Sequence record: OR352953.1 | Strand: one strand, 5' to 3' | Source of the DNA: Escherichia phage AV123 | Length of the DNA stretch: 64,000 nt | Part shown: piece after piece, positions 4,638 to 26,814 of the stretch | How the letters are laid out: each line of letters opens with the position of its first letter | How positions within the stretch are numbered: the stretch's first letter is position 1 | The notes under the pieces: generated by a model | What the model was told of the DNA's origin: nothing | Database searches by the model: none | The model's input: only the letters and a program-made list of their open reading frames with translations | Translations under genes and position numbers: made by a program

Positions 4638-5003
4638 TTAAACGTTTTCTAAATCTTTTAAGGCATTACCCAACGTTAGAACAATAACATCATTTGCTGC
4701 CTCTTCCCCATTGATATTGGTGAAATTTGGTGTTACAAAAGTAACCATATAAAACTCGTCCACCTGGAAGATAGCAATAACACCATCCATCTTAACATCT
4801 TGACGAAAGGAAAAACCAATCATCTTCTCTTGCAAAGGCATATCCCCTTCCTTCATTACTGCCAGGGAGTCTTCAGGAATGTTATATTTATCTGCTCCGA
4901 TGTAGATGTATGTAATGTTATCTTTATCGTGATGATACAGGGTTGCTTTTTCCATATCTAAACCTGACAGATCAAATACGTTAATTTCTTGTGTAGTCTT
5001 CAT
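4638..5003 (-). CDS. hypothetical protein
   Basis: start reset to ATG 5001-5003 (GGGAGGA RBS); track N-extension overlaps upstream gene. Confidence 0.55.
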   Translation of the reverse strand: MKTTQEINVFDLSGLDMEKATLYHHDKDNITYIYIGADKYNIPEDSLAVMKEGDMPLQEKMIGFSFRQDVKMDGVIAIFQVDEFYMVTFVTPNFTNINGEEAANDVIVLTLGNALKDLENV

Positions 5004-5367
5004 AAATATCCTCCCAAATCCAATAATCATCTGTGTAAGTAGGATGCCTTTTATCCCACTCTGTTCTAGCCCAAGCAACCGCTGCTACCAACACATCACC
5101 ATGACAAGGTTGAGGTGCGCAGAAGCAAACTAAGTCTTTCCCTTCTAATTCTAACAAATCCTCAAGAGTGATTTTACCACAACGAATTTGTTCCCACAAC
5201 CACTCTTTATATCTTTGTATAGTTGACCCTCGTGGTTCATCATCCTTTAACTTAAAAGGATTTGCAAACTTTGAGGCTTTTAACCCCATATGAGGCATAG
5301 CTCTGCCAATGTAAACTGCACCTTCAGGTATTACTTTACCTAAGTGGTAAAAATTTAATACTTTCAT
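4981..5367 (-). CDS. DUF4326-family protein
   Basis: YIGR...NPF...C.C.P.PCHGDVL motifs; start reset to ATG 5365-5367. Confidence 0.5.
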   Translation of the reverse strand: MKVLNFYHLGKVIPEGAVYIGRAMPHMGLKASKFANPFKLKDDEPRGSTIQRYKEWLWEQIRCGKITLEDLLELEGKDLVCFCAPQPCHGDVLVAAVAWARTEWDKRHPTYTDDYWIWEDIYEDYTRN

Positions 5368-5368
5368 A

Positions 5369-5719
5369 TTAACCCAAACACATCTGTGCAATCAAGCCCT
5401 GTATAAATTTATTAGCTTCTTTACTGTCGTAGTCAGTCTCTTCTGGATATCCATCTTCATCGTACACAACTGTACCTTCAATATACCCTGCCTCAATTAA
5501 GGCGCGGATCATATCAAATTGCCAGCATGAGTTACCAAATGGACGTTTACCATTAAAACACTCTTCTTCTCTCCATAACGTAGAGAGTAGTTGTCGGAAA
5601 TATTCCCGTACAGTGACAGTACCAAGATCTGAATCCTCAAACATAACATCCAAGGCATCAGGATTGCTTTTCTCTACATAAGGAATATATTTAACACCAT
5701 TAATAGTTACATCAAGCAT
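5369..5719 (-). CDS. hypothetical protein
   Basis: 116 aa ORF. Confidence 0.5.
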   Translation of the reverse strand: MLDVTINGVKYIPYVEKSNPDALDVMFEDSDLGTVTVREYFRQLLSTLWREEECFNGKRPFGNSCWQFDMIRALIEAGYIEGTVVYDEDGYPEETDYDSKEANKFIQGLIAQMCLG

Positions 5720-6082
5720 TTATTTCTCCTTATCATCATATTCTAGGAACATATCTGCACGATATGCTTTACGCTCTTCAAACTTAGCAGGATCTACAAC
5801 AATAAGCAATACAAGGTTAACATCTAAATACTTCTTAACAAATAGAAATAAATCTTTTCCACAGTTAAAACCTACACCAGTATAGGCATCCCCATATTGA
5901 TCTACTGATTTAATCTTCTTACTAACCGTACACTCTATGCTATTCTTTTCTTCTTGGTATAAGGCTTTCCCACCCCAATATGTAAAGAATTTAGTACCGT
6001 CAGCACCAAGTTTAAAACCCTCTGTTGCATGTCCCGCAAATGAAAGTAAACATAACCAAGTGATCATCAGGTACTTTAGCAT
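5720..6082 (-). CDS. secreted protein with N-terminal signal peptide
   Basis: MLKYLMITWLCLLSFAGHA signal-like N-terminus; ATG 6080-6082 with GGGTGG RBS. Confidence 0.55.
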   Translation of the reverse strand: MLKYLMITWLCLLSFAGHATEGFKLGADGTKFFTYWGGKALYQEEKNSIECTVSKKIKSVDQYGDAYTGVGFNCGKDLFLFVKKYLDVNLVLLIVVDPAKFEERKAYRADMFLEYDDKEK

Positions 6083-6083
6083 T

Positions 6084-6566
6084 TTAACCACCCAATTGTA
6101 AATGTTTAGAAAGAACAATATCCCATTGATCACCACAGCCGTTATCTATGCGGAACATAATGTACGTATCATCTTCTTCTACGACATATAATACCTCATA
6201 GGAATTACAACAACCTTCCCAATTTTTAACAGCCTCTGGTGTATCATGTGTAAGAATTTCATTACCATCGTATGACCAAAACAAAGGGGTAAGGTTTTCG
6301 AAGGTCAGTGAAGTAGGGTTTACTTCATCTTTAACTGCTTCCTCATATTCTTTATGCGTTTGTACTGCTTTAGTTAGTGTACTCATGTCTATCTCCTTTT
6401 CTCCTTCTTGACTATGGAGGATAGCGAACTCTCTAAACTCCACTTCACGCCATGTTTTTAGGTAGTGCTTTATAATTTTATCAACATCTGCCTGTTCAAC
6501 ATTACTTTTCAAGCAATAGTAATCATGGTCTTCGCCCATTCTACCCCATATGCTATACCTTGTCAT
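6084..6566 (-). CDS. hypothetical protein
   Basis: 160 aa ORF. Confidence 0.5.
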   Translation of the reverse strand: MTRYSIWGRMGEDHDYYCLKSNVEQADVDKIIKHYLKTWREVEFREFAILHSQEGEKEIDMSTLTKAVQTHKEYEEAVKDEVNPTSLTFENLTPLFWSYDGNEILTHDTPEAVKNWEGCCNSYEVLYVVEEDDTYIMFRIDNGCGDQWDIVLSKHLQLGG

Positions 6567-6834
6567 CTGATTGATCCTTTACATTGCTCTTGGTATACAC
6601 AGGAATAACATCGTGTTGATCTTTATTACTTTCATCTGTTAAAGCCCAAAACAACTTACCTGCTGGATGTTTAAAGATGTAGGCAATAGGTTCCTCTTCC
6701 TGTGCTTCTTTGCTACGGATACCATCCCGCCAGGCAAGCCAAGTGTAGATCATCACTTCTTGACGTTCTTCTTCGTTAGGCCACATATGTGGTGGGAAGG
6801 TTTTATCAAACCATTGCTTAAATTCTTCGGTCAT
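6553..6834 (-). CDS. hypothetical protein
   Basis: 93 aa ORF. Confidence 0.5.
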   Translation of the reverse strand: MTEEFKQWFDKTFPPHMWPNEEERQEVMIYTWLAWRDGIRSKEAQEEEPIAYIFKHPAGKLFWALTDESNKDQHDVIPVYTKSNVKDQSDDKV

Positions 6835-6844
6835 AATCTACTCC

Positions 6845-7009
6845 TTAACGTACAAAGTTAACCTCTGCTTCTTTCAGCTTTGACACTTCTACATAACCAC
6901 CATGATCATCTTTAATCCATTCTTTTCCTTTACGGATGATAACAGGGTAGGTAGAGTGAGTAAGTTTAGGTACAGATCTTTTTGTTTTAGTGATAGAAAT
7001 GTTTTGCAT
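6845..7009 (-). CDS. small hypothetical protein (54 aa)
   Basis: hand-translated ORF below track threshold; AGGAG RBS 6 nt upstream of ATG 7007-7009. Confidence 0.45.
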   Translation of the reverse strand: MQNISITKTKRSVPKLTHSTYPVIIRKGKEWIKDDHGGYVEVSKLKEAEVNFVR

Positions 7010-7069
7010 AATAATCTCCTTAGTAAACTTTACATAGAGTCTAGATTATTTAGTAGATAGAGTCAATAA

Positions 7070-7336
7070 CTAATTACTGTTAGATCTGTATTCTGTCTTC
7101 CATTCACAATGGTAAACTTCAACAGGTTCTAACTTCCAGTGTTCAGGAACTAGTTCAGGACAATATCTACAAAAGAGAAATAGATAGATAACTAAGACAG
7201 GTATTAAATAGTAAAATGGTATACGATCATAACCATACTTACGAGATAACATGTAGACATATAGATATGGTATAACAATTAAACCTATAACTATAAGTAA
7301 GAAGAGAAGTATAAACCTTAGTGTAGTAACATCCAT
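7070..7336 (-). CDS. small membrane protein
   Basis: 88 aa, two hydrophobic segments. Confidence 0.5.
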   Translation of the reverse strand: MDVTTLRFILLFLLIVIGLIVIPYLYVYMLSRKYGYDRIPFYYLIPVLVIYLFLFCRYCPELVPEHWKLEPVEVYHCEWKTEYRSNSN

Positions 7337-7414
7337 AGTATTCTCCTATACAGTAATATACTCTGTTCCTGCCCCTCCATGAGTGACAGGAACAATATCT
7401 ATAGAGAATACTAA

Positions 7415-7468
7415 CTCGCTTCGCTCGTCACCTTTCAGGTTTAGGGTAGCATGTTTTTCTGAAAAAGT
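7415..7468 (+). other. conserved intergenic element, copy 1 (CTCGCT-CGCTCG...TTAGGGTAGCATGTTTTT..GAAAAAGT)
   Basis: second copy at 34586-34638 with an 18-nt identical core; hairpin immediately upstream in both copies. Confidence 0.5.
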
Positions 7469-7500
7469 CAATACTCTCCACAAAACTTTACAAAATACTT

Positions 7501-7773
7501 TTACATAGGTACAACAGAATCTGTTTTGAAGTCGTACATATGATTTACACCTGTGATTTTTGACATAGAGATTGCACGTTTAGCACCTGCAATTACCTGG
7601 TCTGTCTTCTTAATCTCTTCACGGAACTTACGTACAGTTAAAGAGAAGAAACGATGATCCATCCATTGACGATTCACACGATCACGCTTGAAGTGACGGA
7701 AATCTTCAATCTGCTTATTGCGCAATCGGCGCAGTACATGCAATAGTTGATAGTAAGGGTGTTTATTTTTCAT
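7501..7773 (-). CDS. hypothetical basic protein
   Basis: 90 aa ORF. Confidence 0.5.
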   Translation of the reverse strand: MKNKHPYYQLLHVLRRLRNKQIEDFRHFKRDRVNRQWMDHRFFSLTVRKFREEIKKTDQVIAGAKRAISMSKITGVNHMYDFKTDSVVPM

Positions 7774-7776
7774 AAA

Positions 7777-8205
7777 TTATTCTCCAAATCGAAAATCGTC
7801 AATATCATCAAACCATACACAATGGCGAGTCCTTTCTTTTTCTGTTGCAGACATTGTTTCAACAGCTTTAGGACTAAGCACAACAGGAGTGTAACGAATA
7901 GGTCGTTCATAATAGTAGCCATACTTTTCTGTATTAGCTGCCTCAAAGACTTTACGGCGTTCTTCAAGATCTTCTATGGTGAATCCTACCATATAACCAT
8001 CATGTTTGCTACCCCATCCTTCCTCACTTTCAACAATCGGGATATAAAAGCCGTTACGCGTCCCTGACACTGGTTTTTCTTGAGCCTGAAGGCAAGCCTC
8101 CCATCCTGCTTTAAAGACGTTATAGAGCGATTTACGCACGTTATGAGTGCCGCTTTCGCTTGCTGGATAGAGTTCATTAAATTTGTCTTGAATTTGTTGT
8201 GTCAT
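7777..8205 (-). CDS. hypothetical protein
   Basis: 142 aa ORF. Confidence 0.5.
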   Translation of the reverse strand: MTQQIQDKFNELYPASESGTHNVRKSLYNVFKAGWEACLQAQEKPVSGTRNGFYIPIVESEEGWGSKHDGYMVGFTIEDLEERRKVFEAANTEKYGYYYERPIRYTPVVLSPKAVETMSATEKERTRHCVWFDDIDDFRFGE

Positions 8206-8348
8206 ACTCGCCCCTTAGTGATTATTTGACCAGCTAAACAAATAGCTTGTAGTACAATAAAGAAGTAGCCTAATTTTACACTACCTAATACCCAGAATGC
8301 AATGTTTGCAAACAAACAGAAAGCAATATTAAGTTTAAAGAATAACAT

Positions 8349-8549
8349 TTAATCCCCTTCATATTTAGGTAAAGGCATATATGCCACAATAGGAGGGTAA
8401 TCAAAGTGAAAATGATGGTTCACCACAATAATCTTACCAGACATACTTTTATGCACTTCACAATACCCTTTTTCACCATCTTCCATTACCACCACATACT
8501 CACCTAGTGGGATATCGTATGGATCTTCTACTTTTACCCATCCTGTCAT
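8349..8549 (-). CDS. hypothetical protein
   Basis: 66 aa ORF; ATG overlaps stop of upstream small ORF. Confidence 0.45.
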   Translation of the reverse strand: MTGWVKVEDPYDIPLGEYVVVMEDGEKGYCEVHKSMSGKIIVVNHHFHFDYPPIVAYMPLPKYEGD

Positions 8550-8698
8550 TTTGTAAACTCCTCATAGTAAGGTAAAGCCTTGATCAGTTGTTCTGAAGTG
8601 CCATTTTGCACCCACGTAACACCATTGTCAACAGAAACATACCCTTTTTTGTCAATAAATTTACGCAGACAACCAGTGAACTTATTTTTGTAGATCAT
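8546..8698 (-). CDS. small hypothetical protein (50 aa)
   Basis: hand-translated; stop/start overlap with neighbours on both sides. Confidence 0.4.
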   Translation of the reverse strand: MIYKNKFTGCLRKFIDKKGYVSVDNGVTWVQNGTSEQLIKALPYYEEFTK

Positions 8699-8862
8699 TT
8701 CTTCTTTCCTTTTTTGATTACAGCCCCATCACTTCCTTGCCAAACTTCCGCTCTAAATTCCATCTCAAACCACTCACCACCGCAAAAACGGCTGTGTTCA
8801 ACACGTCTATCTTCCTTCATTGCTTCTTTAGCTTCGATAGAAGTTAGTTCGATGTTTTGCAT
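8695..8862 (-). CDS. small hypothetical protein
   Basis: start reset to ATG 8860-8862 with AAAGGAG RBS; first gene of minus block. Confidence 0.45.
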   Translation of the reverse strand: MQNIELTSIEAKEAMKEDRRVEHSRFCGGEWFEMEFRAEVWQGSDGAVIKKGKKK

Positions 8863-8893
8863 TTGCTTTTCTCCTTTCATTTGGTATGCGCTA

Positions 8894-8921
8894 ATCTTAA
8901 CAAAATAAAAATGTATGTCAA
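8894..8921 (-). promoter_or_regulatory. sigma70-like promoter for the minus-strand block
   Basis: minus strand TTGACA-16-TAAGAT upstream of 8862 gene in the divergent region. Confidence 0.45.
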
Positions 8922-8980
8922 TACTTGATTTGAAATTAGTTTCTGGTACTCTGTGTGTATCGTAACAAAAGAGGTTAGAT

Positions 8981-9271
8981 ATGAACATCACACTAGCAAC
9001 TAAGAATATTACAGAAACTTTCGATGGTTTTGGCATTATTATTGCTGTTCATGGGCATAACGAAAAATGGTTAGCCTCTTTTGAAGAGGACAAAGAACGC
9101 AATGTACGTTTGAATGCACCAATCAAAGTTTTACACCAGGTAGGTGAGAATAAGAAACAATGGAGATCATACAAAGAGTGGAACATTACAAACGAATTAA
9201 TACACAAACTTGACAAAGTGCTAAACATGTTCGACAATGCACCAAGCAGTGCAAAACGTGTTTTACTATAA
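8981..9271 (+). CDS. hypothetical protein
   Basis: 96 aa; AGAGG RBS. Confidence 0.55.
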   Translation: MNITLATKNITETFDGFGIIIAVHGHNEKWLASFEEDKERNVRLNAPIKVLHQVGENKKQWRSYKEWNITNELIHKLDKVLNMFDNAPSSAKRVLL

Positions 9272-9282
9272 AGGAGAGTGAT

Positions 9283-9636
9283 ATGAAAATTGTACACGAT
9301 GAAATTCAATTTGAAGAGAGTGATCTTCTTGATCTGGATGTGACACTAAGTAAACTGATCTACAACGCACTTTCTGCATATCGTGCAAAAGTGATAGCCA
9401 CAAACAATGTTAAAATTCCTAGCGGGTTACTTCGTCGGATGTACCCACACGCTAAAGGTGACTATCTACCTTATATGGAAGAACGAGCAGCAGAACACTG
9501 GTTAGAAATTCTTGAAAAAATGGAGTCCTCTTTTAAGGATTCAACTCCACCTGAAGAAGTTAATGAAAAACAACGGCAAGAGCGTTTAGAAGGTCGTATT
9601 TTGTTTGCTAAGTATTTCCATAATTTGTGGAGCTAA
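9283..9636 (+). CDS. hypothetical protein
   Basis: 117 aa; AAGGAG RBS. Confidence 0.55.
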   Translation: MKIVHDEIQFEESDLLDLDVTLSKLIYNALSAYRAKVIATNNVKIPSGLLRRMYPHAKGDYLPYMEERAAEHWLEILEKMESSFKDSTPPEEVNEKQRQERLEGRILFAKYFHNLWS

Positions 9637-9716
9637 ACATATCTGGTAAAATCACTTATATGTTCTTAGTATACTTGTGTAAAGAAGTTATCGGTCTAAT
9701 TAATTAAGGGGAAGAT

Positions 9717-9968
9717 ATGATTCAGTTTCAAAAAGGTCAAAAGATGACAGTTCACGATGCAGAGGAAATGGAGTTTGCACTTAAACTTCTCGAAAATGCT
9801 GGGTTTGTGTGGATCAACGGTGGAGAGAAGCCTACAGCTTGGCTTCCGCATGAGAAAATAGCCAACCACACCTTCCCTGATAGTATCAATTGGCATTCTG
9901 ATGGTAAGATTTGCCGTGGAAGTTACCCAACAGGTGTTGAGTGGACTATTAAATTAGGAGGGCTTTAA
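9717..9968 (+). CDS. hypothetical protein
   Basis: 83 aa; AAGGGG RBS. Confidence 0.5.
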   Translation: MIQFQKGQKMTVHDAEEMEFALKLLENAGFVWINGGEKPTAWLPHEKIANHTFPDSINWHSDGKICRGSYPTGVEWTIKLGGL

Positions 9969-9969
9969 T

Positions 9970-10308
9970 ATGTTTAGTAAAGAAATGAGAGAAGTAATTG
10001 CCACTTTGGTAGTTGATCATGGTGTTGAAGTTGAGCGTCACGTTTGGAACGATGAACCTCCTTTCTTCGATTTGGCATCACGAGCTAAAAGTCATATGCA
10101 CCTGCTGGAAGACGGTAATGAGTTTGTTCTCCGTATGCGTTATGATCGAGAGTTTCGAATTCCGCTTGACACTGAACCAGATGGTGTAGTAATGTGGTTG
10201 GCAGAACATTTCGCATACGATGCACTACATGGAAGAAGTTTTGGTAATGAGCGTTGGGATGCCATTTGTCGTAAGCATAATATTGAACCAGAGTACGGAG
10301 TTTTATAA
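9970..10308 (+). CDS. hypothetical protein
   Basis: 112 aa. Confidence 0.5.
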   Translation: MFSKEMREVIATLVVDHGVEVERHVWNDEPPFFDLASRAKSHMHLLEDGNEFVLRMRYDREFRIPLDTEPDGVVMWLAEHFAYDALHGRSFGNERWDAICRKHNIEPEYGVL

Positions 10309-11217: not shown

Positions 11218-12345
11218 ATGAAATACACGATTTATGGTGATATTGTAAGTGTAAATAAAGATATGGGCGTGGAATCTAACTATCTTCCACCTGGATTCTA
11301 TACTGTTAGTCGTGATCCCCTTGGCAATTACTTTTTAAGCCGTGGTAATCTAACAGGTGTACCGGATGTTCTGTATGGTGAAACAGAAAAACGAGCAAAT
11401 CACGTTATTCGTACATTCCATCGCCGGAGTGCACAAGGTAAAAATACAGGTTTGCTCCTGACAGGCACTAAGGGCAGTGGTAAAACTATGTTAGCCAAAC
11501 TCATTAGTCGTGACCTTGTAGAAGAAGGTATTCCAACTATTATGGTTACTCAAGCCTACAGCGATGCTAATTTCATTGAACTTATTAGCAAGATCACCGA
11601 CAAAGCAGTGATTATTTTTGACGAGTTTGATAAAGTATATGAGAAGAAACAAGATCAAGAAGCACTTCTCACTTTGTTAGATGGTACTGGCAGTGGTAAT
11701 AAACTGTTTATTCTAACTAAAAACAGTGGCTTTATCTCTGAATTCTTTCTAAATCGTCCTAGTCGTGTGTTTTATAATTTTAATTATGATAAAATCTCAC
11801 TAGAAACTATGATTGACTATTTAGATAAAAACCTGGATAACAAAGCACACTTTGATAATTTCCAAAGGCTTTGGGATGTAAGTTTAGAGTTGTCCTTTGA
11901 TGTGATCCAAGGTATAGTAGAAGAACTTAATTTCTACCCTGATTTATCCTTTAAAGAATGCATCTCTATGATGGGCGTTTCTTTGGGTGGTGGTAATAAG
12001 TGGGATATCAGCAGCGTTGTTATTAATGGGAAACTTCAGAAAGTTAGCTGGGTATCTAGTTGGCATAACTTCACACCTGCAATCTTTTTAGGTGGCTCGT
12101 GCACACTAGACGTGTACTTGTCATCTCCAAGTGATGCAGACTCTAAAGAAGCCCTTGCTAATAGCTCTTACGTGGTTTTTGATGATGAAGGAGATGCTCG
12201 AATTCCATTGAATGCGACAAAAATGAAAGCAGATCTTATTACAGGCGGTAAAATCGTTGTGTTTAGTGATGATCCAGAAGATTCTTTCCGTATTGTTCTG
12301 GAACCAACTATCACCAATGGTGCAACTTTGGCAAGCGTGTTTTAA
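11218..12345 (+). CDS. AAA-type ATPase domain protein
   Basis: Walker A GTKGSGKT, Walker B IIFDEFD; 375 aa. Confidence 0.65.
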   Translation: MKYTIYGDIVSVNKDMGVESNYLPPGFYTVSRDPLGNYFLSRGNLTGVPDVLYGETEKRANHVIRTFHRRSAQGKNTGLLLTGTKGSGKTMLAKLISRDLVEEGIPTIMVTQAYSDANFIELISKITDKAVIIFDEFDKVYEKKQDQEALLTLLDGTGSGNKLFILTKNSGFISEFFLNRPSRVFYNFNYDKISLETMIDYLDKNLDNKAHFDNFQRLWDVSLELSFDVIQGIVEELNFYPDLSFKECISMMGVSLGGGNKWDISSVVINGKLQKVSWVSSWHNFTPAIFLGGSCTLDVYLSSPSDADSKEALANSSYVVFDDEGDARIPLNATKMKADLITGGKIVVFSDDPEDSFRIVLEPTITNGATLASVF

Positions 12346-13409: not shown

Positions 13410-13961
13410 ATGCGGATTACTGATAAGTATGTGTTCTTCTTTTCAGCAAAAGATGAATTTAGCAACTGGTATCTATCATCTTTTATTGAACCTTTAGCAC
13501 CCAAGTATAATAATTCTATTACAAGTTCTGTTGAATTTACTTGTGTGGAACAATATATGATGTGGAGAAAAGCATGTTTGTTTTATGATTACAGTATTGC
13601 ATCTTCTATTTTAACCGGAGATCTAAGATATACAGGAGAAAAAGAACAAGCATATTATAAGCGACTAGGCAGATTAGTTAAAGATTATGATGAAGATACC
13701 TGGACTTCTTTACGGGAGAAGATTGTCAAACGTGGTTTGTATCTTAAATACACACAAAATGAAGATCTCAAAAATAAACTTATAACCTACGCAGATAAGG
13801 AGTTCGTAGAGGCAAGCCCTTATGATTCTATTTATGGTATCAAAATGGGGATGTGGGATCGTGACGTGGAAAATAAGGACTGTTGGAAAGGACAAAATCT
13901 TTTAGGAAAATGGCATACAGACCTTGCTGTTTATCTAAAAGCACAATCTGATATTTCCTGA
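13410..13961 (+). CDS. NADAR (YbiA-like) domain protein
   Basis: 183 aa; FF.S..EFSNW, VEQYMMW.KA, SPYDSIYGIKMG, NLLGK motifs recalled from NADAR/DUF1768. Confidence 0.6.
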   Translation: MRITDKYVFFFSAKDEFSNWYLSSFIEPLAPKYNNSITSSVEFTCVEQYMMWRKACLFYDYSIASSILTGDLRYTGEKEQAYYKRLGRLVKDYDEDTWTSLREKIVKRGLYLKYTQNEDLKNKLITYADKEFVEASPYDSIYGIKMGMWDRDVENKDCWKGQNLLGKWHTDLAVYLKAQSDIS

Positions 13962-14175
13962 TATTTTGAAAATTTTTATTTTTATAAAAAGGGGTGTGGG
14001 TTTCATGTACGGAAATTCACCCTCTGAATAATATATTCAGAGTAAATATTATTTTGTACTCTGTTAATAAATTATTTAATTTGTTTGTTGGATTATGATA
14101 TCTGGTTTTTAAAAGGCATACTATCTCTTAACTACTATTTATAACAGAACAGTAAAATCATTTTTATAAAAAGGA

Positions 14176-14382
14176 CAAAATTATTTAAAGTTTTTACAGA
14201 TTTTTGGATACAAATTTTGAAAATGAAAAGTTCAAGTTTGGTCAAAATTATTTAAAGTTTTTGTATGTATTTCTATCCAGATTTTGAAAATGAAAACTTC
14301 AATTTTTTAAAAATTCCCCAGTTTATTTAAAGTTTTTTTGCCTTTTTCCGTAGAAAAATCAAAAATGAAAAGTTCAATTTCG
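14176..14382. repeat. three tandem ~65 bp AT-rich direct repeats
   Basis: units at 14176, 14243, 14320 sharing ATTTAAAGTTTTT...ATTTTGAAAATGAAAAGTTCAA. Confidence 0.7.
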
Positions 14383-14400
14383 TGTTTTTATAGGTGTGTT

Positions 14401-14513
14401 AATGAGAATCATTTTCGTTTGTAAATGAGAATCATTATCATTTAACTATGTAAGTGATAATCATTCTCACTAAGAGAATGAGAATCATTAGCAAATGAGA
14501 ATTTTTCTCATTT
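14401..14513. promoter_or_regulatory. cluster of five Fur-box-like palindromes (ATGAGAAT-C-ATTCTCAT family)
   Basis: copies at 14401, 14424, 14454, 14474, 14493; one symmetric substitution from E. coli Fur core TGATAATCATTATCA. Confidence 0.5.
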
Positions 14514-14774
14514 AGAGAATAACGCGCAGGGGTGGTGTTTGTCTCGCGCTCCCGTGTCCCCTCGCCATACAATAAGAATAGCATAACCAACAACAAAAGC
14601 AAGCGATTATTTTTATCTTTACATTTCTTTACAAATTTATTTTAGACGAGCTACCAGCGATCAACCTTCCAACCAGTGCCCCCTGGTATGTTAGCCCCGC
14701 CTTTACGCCGTGGGGATGGCGCTTCCTCTTCTGTATGTAAAACAGTATAAGCCCGATCCCTGGGCTTGTCAAGA

Positions 14775-15041
14775 TTATTTTTTGTTTTCTTGCCAGGATA
14801 GGACACCTAACCAAAAATACATGTCGCCCCGCGCCCCTGGCGGGATCTTGCTTTCCCCGCCGCCACTGCAAGCCCATAGATAACCATTTGCGAACGTATC
14901 AAAATGATCTATTTCTTCCACCTTATGATCGCCCAGGTTGAGAACGGTTTCAACCTTTAAGCCCGTTGCGCTTGCTACCTGGTGCACCGTGCCGCCTTGC
15001 CAGCCTAATGAGTGCATGAGGTGTGAAGTAGTATTTGTCAT
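14775..15041 (-). CDS. hypothetical protein in GC-rich island
   Basis: 88 aa; ATG 15039-15041 with AAAGGG RBS; GC-rich unlike surroundings; overlaps a second ORF (14629-14877) in another frame. Confidence 0.35.
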   Translation of the reverse strand: MTNTTSHLMHSLGWQGGTVHQVASATGLKVETVLNLGDHKVEEIDHFDTFANGYLWACSGGGESKIPPGARGDMYFWLGVLSWQENKK

Positions 15042-15152
15042 GGTATCGCCCTTTCTTTGATGTGCGCCCTGGTTGGCGCGGTAGAAAGATAATAGCCCTT
15101 TCCTTTATAGATAGCAAGCAAAAAAGAAATGAAAAAAAGATTAAAAAAGGGG

Positions 15153-25087: not shown

Positions 25088-25116
25088 CAAGGGCGCTTAT
25101 TGCGCCCTTTCTTTTT
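25088..25116 (+). terminator. rho-independent terminator
   Basis: GGGCGCTTATTGCGCCC then TTTCTTTTT. Confidence 0.65.
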
Positions 25117-25321: not shown

Positions 25322-25392
25322 AATGATAATCATTCTTATTTATAGCTGATTATTTATGCAATAAATTGCATAATGCAATAATGAGAATCATT
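25322..25392. promoter_or_regulatory. two Fur-box-like palindromes
   Basis: AATGATAATCATTCTTAT at 25322 and AATGAGAATCATT at 25380. Confidence 0.45.
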
Positions 25393-25801
25393 CTTAACTT
25401 AAGACCATCTAACCTATAAAATAATAAGTTATCTAACTAAATTAAAACTAATTATCTCACCTTTATTTATAACTTACTGTTACTATCTCATTGATAACAT
25501 TGTATTAAACAATAATAACTAATATAAATCATTACTAAGCTAAATATAATCTATCTAACCCTTAAAACTACAATTATAATCTATCGAATTGTTGCACAAA
25601 GTAACTATTAAATTGTTAGTAACATTACTAAATAATTCACATCCTATCTATTTATGATCTAATCTTTACCTTCCTATCTATTACTTAGATAATCATTTCA
25701 TACAGTAACCATTTCATGTAGTAATCATTCCATACAATAACTATAACAAGAAATATAATTCGCAAGCGTATCATTAGCAGCCTATGCCGGACACATAGGC
25801 G

Positions 25802-25948: not shown

Positions 25949-26241
25949 TAATGTTTAGAACATTGGCTATAATATAAGCTATCCAATAATAAACATGGTG
26001 AATAATGACACTGATGATCATAATGCGCCACCCTCCAGGGGGCGCTATGTGAACACAAAGAAATCTTTCTTGTCAAGAAAAATATCACCATTATTGCGCA
26101 AAATTATTTATATCTGAATAGATGATTTTTCATACTATTGCCCCCTTGATTATTACCATTTGTTGAGCCTACTTTCTTAAAAGCGCAATAAAATAGAATT
26201 ATATTGATTTTTAGTCGGTTTTATAGTACAGAAAGTATGCA

Positions 26242-26456
26242 AATGATAATCATTATCAGCTATCTTCCACGGGTGGCACTATTTCACACCAGATCATTTC
26301 ATTTGGCAAGGTGTATATAGATGTTTAGACTTGCCAAGCCATTGATTTCCTTAGAATTTATCTGTTTTGTTGTGAGTAGTACCTTTCTTGCTTAGAAAAT
26401 AATCAAAAGTCTTATAAGTCATTGAATGATAATACAAATGATAATTATTCTCATTG
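26242..26456. promoter_or_regulatory. Fur-box-like sites
   Basis: AATGATAATCATTATC at 26242 (15/15 to Fur core) and GAATGATAAT..ATGATAATTATTCTCATTG at 26424. Confidence 0.5.
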
Positions 26457-26814
26457 ATATTTGAGGGGGACGGTCGGCAGAAATCGGGGGGTGCTGAAAA
26501 TCGCGTTAAGCACCTCTCGCAAGCGAGCAGTATTTTGCGGCAAGTTATTGATATTATTGACTTTACGCTTATGAAAAGGGGGTGTGTCGAAATAAATCGG
26601 GTATACCGGAAAATTTTTGTGGCATAGATATTTATTTGTCTATATTATGTACAAAGGGGTGTGTTAAAAATAATAGGTATATATAGAATAATTGATAGGG
26701 AATATCTATACTAATTCCTCCATTAATGATATTCCTATGCTACTGCTCTTGTAATAGATGAAAAGACGCTGTATGATGTGTGGCATGAAACGTAAACTTA
26801 TAAAGGAGTCTGAT

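Follow-up and report, generated by a model that had tools for sequence, protein, structure and literature searches.

Palindromes in a gap between converging genes

We analysed 64,000 nt of the genome of Escherichia phage AV123 (OR352953.1; this whole stretch is referred to as the window), centring on a cluster of palindromes near 14.4 kb that resemble binding sites of the host iron regulator Fur. The surrounding DNA (13900-15100) is 97-99% identical to Escherichia phages VEcB and phi92 and to many other members of Justusliebigvirus (Stephanstirmvirinae), virulent myophages with genomes of ~148 kb. A plus-strand homologue of gp223, which encodes a NADAR-domain protein, ends at 13961, and a minus-strand homologue of gp224 (14775-15041), to which no function is assigned, ends at 14775. 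The gap of about 810 bp between these convergent genes is free of open reading frames (ORFs), and the phi92 annotation likewise places the palindromes between gp223 and gp224; the sole feature annotated there is a repeat_region in phage inny. The genes near the cluster encode the NADAR protein, an endonuclease, an ATPase and an unknown protein. The cluster itself marks a junction: a block of small early genes lies to its right, and to its left is the preceding block of genes.

Five 19-bp palindromes fall within 14401-14512, about 110 bp (Table 1), where an earlier note made from the sequence alone had described them. First-order Markov simulation of the window (100 runs) never placed two or more sites with at least 12 of 14 matches to the Fur core in any 120-bp stretch, and 3000 simulated versions of the 813-bp gap, matched to it in composition, contained 0.035 sites on average and two at most. 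Because neither set ever reached the observed five, the array is not a product of chance. A 54-aa ORF that runs across the boxes on the minus strand (14438-14602) was rejected as a coding sequence, since relatives carry indels and have no start codon.

The palindromes score like host Fur operators

Textbooks describe Fur boxes as elements of iron promoters in bacteria. With the 7-1-7 Fur core used for matching (TGATAATnATTATCA), boxes 1 to 5 have 2, 0, 0, 1 and 1 mismatches to TGAKAATNATTMTCA, that is, 12-14 matches of 14. Against the classical 19-mer GATAATGATAATCATTATC, four of the boxes score 15-16/19 and the fifth falls under the listing threshold of 14/19. As a positive control for the scorer we used 26 kb of E. 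coli K-12 holding the enterobactin genes, where the Fur-controlled fepA-fes, fepD-entS, fepB and entC regulatory regions gave 13-16/19. By this measure four of the five phage boxes equal the best host operators, and the description "Fur-box-like" in the earlier note was apt. Both fepB and entS serve as test sites in the study of Chen et al. (2007; PMC2189734). The note had also taken one symmetric substitution per half-site for a departure from the Fur core. This proved mistaken, as G for T at this position is within host usage: the fepB site AATAATGCTTCTCATTTTC has a TCTCATT half-site (TTCTCATT), and the pooled consensus of the phage boxes, AAATGAGAATCATTCTCATTT, carries G in 68% and T in 30%.

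Chen et al. (2007; PMC2189734) described clusters of Fur sites as hexamer arrays, in which overlapping matches are shifted against each other by 6 (or 3) bases. In the phage array, too, the strong matches have weaker neighbours at a distance of exactly 6 bp (14397/14403, 14473/14479, 14421/14427 and 14450/14456), and these pairs have the hexamer-array form of Fur operators. Box 4 is extended by an additional in-phase GAGAAT hexamer (14474-14495, GAGAATGAGAATCATTAGCAAA) that is confined to Justusliebigvirus, with a 12-bp gap at this point in other genera. The boxes are irregularly spaced, at 23, 29, 24 and 17 bp centre to centre. In their 19-bp and 7-1-7 consensus, their scores, their 6-bp offsets and the presence of several sites per region, the E. 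coli ent operators (fepA-fes, fepD-entS and fepB-entC) are thus like the phage array. They differ from it in context: host clusters overlap the -35 and -10 elements of iron-regulated promoters, whereas the array consists of five well-separated strong sites (17-29 bp centre to centre) downstream of converging units with no good promoter inside. At the level of sequence the array passes for a Fur operator. Overlap with the promoter of an iron-regulated gene, which the usual context of such operators would lead one to expect, is not evident, with only a weak candidate in Vequintavirinae (see below).

Across the whole 64 kb, eleven sites match at 12/14 or better, nine of them in three ORF-free loci. 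The motif scan covered 114 kb of the ~148-kb genome type, and phi92 1-50000 added only one further site at this level. When the 126-bp cluster was compared by BLAST with 5,426 E. coli genomes, all matches had E of at least 1, the query being too short for a database of that size to be informative.

Table 1. Features of the palindrome cluster, its surroundings and the further box-bearing loci, in window coordinates
Feature	Position	Strand	Sequence or motif	Remarks
Three iteron-like tandem repeats, 67-75 bp	14160-14380			Directly left of the boxes
Putative Fur box 1	14401-14419		AATGAGAATCATTTTCGTT	Right half degenerate here; phi92 counterpart is a perfect TGATAATCATTCTCA
Putative Fur box 2	14424-14442		AATGAGAATCATTATCATT	14/14 against TGAKAATNATTMTCA; 16/19 against the classical consensus
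Putative Fur box 3	14453-14471		AGTGATAATCATTCTCACT	14/14 against TGAKAATNATTMTCA; 15/19 against the classical consensus
Putative Fur box 4	14477-14495		AATGAGAATCATTAGCAAA	
Putative Fur box 5 (proximal)	14494-14512		AATGAGAATTTTTCTCATT	Positionally conserved in all relatives
Conserved hexamer	14515-14520		nnGAAT	GAGAAT here, mostly CAGAAT elsewhere
GC-rich hairpin domain	14521-14566	-	GAGACAAACACC	Conserved loop
Direct repeat	14617-14633		CTTTACA-N3-CTTTACA	Mean column identity 0.91
Highly conserved ~105-nt domain of candidate non-coding RNA	14629-14737	-		
Sigma70-type promoter (predicted)	14744-14772	-	TTGACA-17-TATACT	11/12; best sigma70 match of the region
Second locus of putative Fur boxes	25322-25398			Boxes at 25324 and 25382, 13/14 each, 58 bp apart
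Third locus of putative Fur boxes	26242-26455			Two perfect boxes at 26244 and 26439

One box is held at a fixed position in all relatives

We gathered 32 distinct homologous loci from a phage database, IMG/VR and metagenomes, to which nhmmer later added KNP2 and Erwinia phage Hena1. The palindromes are conserved in related phages: at least one Fur box occurs at the same place in 32/32 loci, which come from phages of five host genera, and also in the distant Hena1. The box-bearing relatives belong to Justusliebigvirus, Phapecoctavirus, Seunavirus, Mydovirus and Certrevirus or are W70-like phages, and the positions are base-exact across phages of Escherichia, Salmonella, Klebsiella, Cronobacter, Pectobacterium and Erwinia. 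In every locus a box lies directly beyond the GC-rich hairpin domain of a conserved non-coding unit (described below). This proximal box has a mean column identity of 0.91, compared with 0.89 for the 5´ domain of the unit's candidate RNA and 0.73 for the hairpin domain. In 26 of the 29 loci where the distance could be measured, exactly 31 bp separate its centre from the conserved GGTGWTTG loop motif; the other three have a 1-nt deletion within the box.

The number of boxes per locus, scored at 11/14 or better, ranges from one to five. Six loci score a single box, always in the proximal position (SSE121, W70, L014, L016 (Av-05), L028 and L029; the count for L014 is of a partial locus, as its sequence ends at a contig end). 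Three Justusliebigvirus loci score five, while the others of this genus score four because of a 1-nt deletion in box 5. The base-exact spacing, the occurrence of the proximal box as the sole box in six loci and its conservation, equal to that of the adjoining element, all argue for a local role for at least this box. One locus, L022, was considered as a box-less relative and rejected, since a homing-endonuclease gene is inserted there and the hairpin and box follow further on. This 197-aa homing-endonuclease-like gene (L022 6280-7130) stands directly after the 5´ domain of the non-coding unit, which becomes its leader, and a second, divergent promoter and 5´-domain-like copy are found past the insert. 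W70 has a DnaA-box-like ATATCCACA (L011, about 1145-1165) 50-60 bp upstream of its lone Fur box. In T5, DnaA boxes are likewise found beside the Fur boxes (see below); near the cluster in the window there is no such box.

The fixed position of the proximal box bears directly on the suggestion, made in the earlier note, that the cluster is a titration sink. Here, replicating genomes with 9-11 strong operators each would soak up Fur, derepress the host iron regulon and so feed phage DNA synthesis; besides iron uptake, the Fur-repressed regulon includes the nrdHIEF ribonucleotide reductase. The datA locus is a comparable binding-site decoy for DnaA. That multicopy Fur boxes can act in this way is known from the Fur titration assay, in which they derepress a reporter (PMC2189734). 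Like the plasmids of that assay and datA, the array is a cluster of high-affinity sites without an obvious local target gene. The window has nine strong boxes in 64 kb with essentially none elsewhere, and box number is variable and expandable, from 1-5 per cluster here up to seven in other viral contigs; one viral contig carries seven GAGAAT hexamers. By our own rough estimate, ~100-200 genomes with ~10 sites each binding 2-4 monomers would be comparable to the ~5,000-10,000 Fur molecules in a cell. Decoys need no fixed geometry, however, whereas the proximal site is fixed to the base and is the only box scored in six loci. A sink would matter in iron-replete cells only, and it would be pointless in T5, which degrades host DNA within minutes and yet has the same arrays. 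A pure sink thus fails to explain why a single box keeps its place and spacing in all relatives, and we consider titration an unlikely main function, while noting that the extra, non-proximal boxes could act as a sink.

The motif points to a probable shared host factor

To distinguish sites read by a protein from structures formed by the palindromes themselves, asymmetries between half-sites were counted. Each box could form a 7-9-bp hairpin, as RNA in a read-through transcript or as a DNA cruciform, with no sequence-specific protein involved, and this hairpin potential is reflected in spurious microRNA-precursor-like matches of the palindromes in Rfam. Rfam 15 gave no family at gathering score anywhere in the window, only chance-level matches at E up to 10. 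Among 30 distinct boxes, however, only one of 46 departures from the symmetric consensus keeps complementarity. The half-sites degenerate independently, which indicates that they are read by a protein rather than selected as hairpins. Boxes that are G/A hybrids are common and it is the sequence, beyond its symmetry, that is conserved. Purely structural palindromes are hence largely refuted, and we give this explanation next to no weight.

The same motif is found well outside the relatives of AV123. T5-like phages matched the array itself in BLAST, and T5 (AY587007.1, L161) has sites at 9475, 9510, 9579 (a perfect TGAGAATCATTATCA) and 9614-9626, in a region spanning 9475-9640. Fur-box-like sites are also present in the T5-like phage pork29 (L005 1158-1690). 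An exact scan of IMG/VR for AATGAKAATCATTMTCATT returned at least 120 contigs. Among the matches listed, 56 contigs have at least two boxes in 250 bp and 23 have at least three; all 23 clusters of three or more lie in ORF-free gaps, of 385-2080 bp where both flanking ORFs were found. These listed matches include the Klebsiella jumbo phage RaK2 (L044 3354-3469), a ~20-kb TerL-bearing contig, contigs of 21-53% GC, arrays of 3-7 boxes (L056 2544-2743, L142 2955-3202, L087 5782-5904 and L082 82-302) and one contig with a pure run of seven tandem GAGAAT hexamers. L056 also carries many DnaA-box-like TTATCAACA repeats beside its cluster.

This wide distribution weighs on the proposal, also raised in the earlier note, that a phage-encoded dimeric protein whose specificity resembles that of Fur binds the boxes. 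Palindromic 8-1-8 sites would suit any dimeric helix-turn-helix protein, and the annotation of phi92 lists several small early proteins as possible regulators of transcription. Arrays of the identical motif in T5-like phages, RaK2, the TerL contig and contigs of such different GC content nevertheless speak against it, and we know of no single phage protein common to all array-bearing phages. No Fur homologue was detected by tblastn in phi92-, rV5- or T5-like phages using E. coli Fur (a query that matched a Salmonella-derived record at 99.3%), and the identities of the neighbouring genes listed above likewise count against the proposal. A phage regulator is accordingly improbable, clearly more so than a sink. 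Recognition by Fur is reported to be conserved across distant bacteria (PMC2189734). Since the same motif occurs in so many unrelated phages and hosts and Fur specificity is conserved, a phage protein is a far less likely candidate for the shared factor than Fur. On the evidence of motif, arrangement and conservation, we propose that the five palindromes are probably operators for host Fur, with a probability of roughly 0.8.

Further boxes lie in the terminal repeat

In addition to the five-box array, the window contains two more box-bearing loci, both in a 1.7-kb ORF-free region (Table 1). The boxes of the second locus are ~220 bp beyond a plus-strand terminator at 25089-25109. The 343-bp direct terminal repeat annotated in phi92 (phi92 1-343) corresponds to 26166-26508 of the window and holds exactly two perfect boxes, those at 26244 and 26439, which by this correspondence fall at the physical genome ends. 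All four extra boxes keep their positions in Phapecoctavirus tuntematon and Klebsiella phage FKP3, although the DNA around them can be aligned only in part. Near the start of the FKP3 record, the terminal-repeat box pair occurs twice, at a distance of 500 bp (L160 1780/1950 and 2280/2450). A GC-rich, ORF-poor stretch (GAGGGGGACGGTCGGCAGAAATCGGGGGG...) at 26456-26640 comes right after the terminal-repeat box, in the same layout as at 14512-14566.

In the "injection stop" region of T5, the sites coincide with features already annotated, namely palindromes E, G, H and I and copies 1-4 of direct repeat C. DnaA boxes and the 7.9% nick adjoin them, and first-step DNA transfer has its boundary here. 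The Fur motif accounts for these palindromes. The T5 literature covered here ascribes the region to DnaA or gives no explanation for it, and Fur is nowhere mentioned, Davison's analysis of the region included; two later T5 papers describe the region as functionally unstudied. The T5 cluster (repeat region 3) and the array described here are alike in motif, in comprising at least five sites, in occupying a large ORF-free region with repeats nearby and in the GC-rich hairpin that follows; in contrast to the array, the T5 cluster is part of a 10-kb terminal repeat and has DnaA boxes and a strand nick next to it.

These locations raise the possibility that the boxes are architectural sites, at which Fur, bound beside the iteron-like repeats, would help to assemble a nucleoprotein complex that initiates replication, acts in packaging or the processing of genome ends, or makes DNA entry pause in the manner proposed for the T5 injection stop region. 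The boxes always adjoin tandem repeats, within a large ORF-free region, and each related genus has its own repeat unit at that position. A distance of 11.7 kb separates the array from the right genome end. This is 7.9% of the genome, numerically equal to the first-step transfer of T5, an agreement that may be a coincidence. Among the listed viral contigs of at least 30 kb, 7/22 have a box within 5% of a contig end compared with 2.2 expected (p = 0.004). An AAA+ ATPase with weak DnaC-like matches is encoded ~2 kb upstream of the array (11218-12345). Against such a role, DnaA boxes are not enriched near the array and GC skew shows no switch or origin signal at 14.4 kb, where it tracks gene orientation. 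We also know of no role for Fur in replication, packaging or DNA entry, nor, to our knowledge, has two-step injection been reported for phi92- or rV5-like phages. An architectural function seems doubtful to us, about as much so as titration, but both compete seriously with the account that we favour below.

The earlier note had also considered iterons of a replication origin. Iterons are same-orientation direct repeats that a plasmid- or phage-encoded initiator binds, accompanied by an AT-rich unwinding element and often by DnaA boxes; the palindromes are irregularly spaced and have neither DnaA boxes nor a skew switch, making them unlikely iterons. The idea holds better for the adjoining tandem repeats, which are iteron-like and could be an origin or another protein-binding platform. 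Considerably more speculative is a general scheme in which Fur arrays would be a widespread and so far unrecognised class of phage cis-elements marking the boundary of the early part of the genome that enters first. Fur, alone or with DnaA, would then be the missing host factor for the T5 injection stop, and phi92- and rV5-like phages would have a ~12-kb "first-step" early module bounded by Fur arrays, an idea based on the 7.9% position of the cluster and on the boxes of the terminal repeat. We regard this scheme as a long shot, even less probable than a phage regulator.

A conserved non-coding unit faces the array

Where the earlier note had the palindromes lying simply downstream of convergent gene ends, gp223 and gp224 do converge, but an unannotated promoter and a non-coding unit intervene between gp224 and the boxes. 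These are missing from the note, as are the four additional boxes (including the pair in the terminal repeat), the match to the T5 "injection stop" palindromes and the wide spread of such arrays. The minus-strand promoter overlaps the hairpin that follows gp224 and points at the boxes across 220 bp without a conserved ORF. Its -35 and -10 hexamers are kept in all 32 relatives, with a spacer that varies in sequence, and this is true also of PBES02, in which there is no upstream gene. Because the hexamers are retained despite changes in the spacer, even in PBES02, the element is likely to be a promoter and not merely the gp224 terminator. No canonical intrinsic terminator was found between it and the boxes, and an unannotated transcription unit can be drawn from 14772 to 14520 on the minus strand.

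Within this unit, 14616-14741 is 80-86% identical in Klebsiella, Cronobacter and Pectobacterium phages whose flanking DNA does not align, and the ~105-nt domain is nearly invariant across phages of six host genera. The consensus fold of this 5´ domain has 21 pairs, with 99% of cells paired, and one pair is compensatory (A-U in 18 sequences and G-C in 10). The minus strand is favoured by the consensus energy (-17.8 compared with -14.8 kcal/mol) and by invariant G-U pairs that would be A-C on the other strand. These features suggest a candidate non-coding RNA from 14520-14772, with modest support from covariation. The stems of the hairpin domain differ by lineage (GGGG/CCCC or CCGG/CCGGG). The adjacent hexamer at 14515-14520 may belong to the Fur sites as one more hexamer, form the tail of the RNA hairpin or serve as the -10 element of a weak plus-strand promoter. 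For the last, a candidate TTGAAT-18-CAGAAT with the Fur box as its spacer is found in Vequintavirinae only, where a weak antisense promoter overlapping the proximal box is plausible. The pseudo-ToxI anti-abortive-infection locus was also considered, as a "terminator" is annotated by the phiTE box; it is unrelated and sits at 106.7 kb of phiTE.

Iron-loaded Fur dimers are known to nucleate on high-affinity arrays and to spread along them. If host Fur does bind here, we tentatively favour a local, iron-dependent block to transcription at the array, an account that we hold at somewhat less than even odds. The five boxes would constitute a ~110-bp high-affinity Fur array, a conserved cis-element at the junction between modules. 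The strong, conserved sigma70 promoter (14772-14744, minus strand), taken to be an early one, would drive a non-coding transcript toward it, with the proximal operator at a fixed distance from the terminal hairpin of this transcript. When iron is sufficient, Fe2+-Fur on the array would form a nucleoprotein block that stops or limits transcription across the junction. This would apply to read-through of the non-coding transcript, which would otherwise continue through the tandem repeats and run antisense to gp223, and perhaps to the weak antisense promoter at the proximal box. When iron is scarce, Fur would depart and the junction would open. Transcription of the junction, and perhaps the activity of the neighbouring repeats, would in this way respond to iron.

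Several observations weigh against a transcriptional block. As the earlier note had seen, there is no obvious promoter at the boxes: none scoring at least 9/12 for sigma70 overlaps them (14395-14520). The antisense promoter candidate has a poor -35 element in the window (GCAAAT), and its -10 element is without the key A in some genera (CTGAAT and CGGAAT). Folded as a single sequence, the RNA is no more stable than shuffled sequences on either strand (z = +1.0), and most of its predicted pairs never vary; for both reasons the conserved segment could act as DNA and not RNA. The boxes in the terminal repeat and the location of the T5 sites at the first-step-transfer boundary are suggestive of a function at the genome ends or in DNA entry instead of transcription. 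Lastly, we know of no established precedent for a Fur roadblock.

Fur sites on phage DNA and minor observations

Host Fur sites on phage DNA are known from temperate phages, upstream of stx1 and, on lambdoid phages, of sitABCD (PMC6969025; PMC5552940). The array resembles these in being a set of host Fur sites on phage DNA. The stx1 and sitABCD boxes, however, are single operators at the promoters of cargo genes and serve the lysogen, whereas the array is multi-site, is in a virulent phage, has no protein-coding target and is conserved as part of the backbone. No open-access paper was found linking Fur boxes to rV5-, phi92- or T5-like phages, though closed literature may differ. Backbone-conserved Fur arrays in virulent phages, as the palindromes appear to be, thus have no description that we could find in the open-access literature, in which the known phage boxes are single cargo operators in temperate phages. 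If Fur does bind the arrays, virulent phages would sense, use or disarm the host iron regulator, which would bear on phage therapy at iron-limited infection sites, on the iron ecology of phages and hosts and on the two-step DNA entry of T5.

No tRNA genes were found in the window. Four records labelled "Campylobacter phage" with host Campylobacter jejuni (MG065639, MG065656, MG065645 and MG065689) are 97.8% identical over the locus, and these labels probably reflect contamination or mislabelling.

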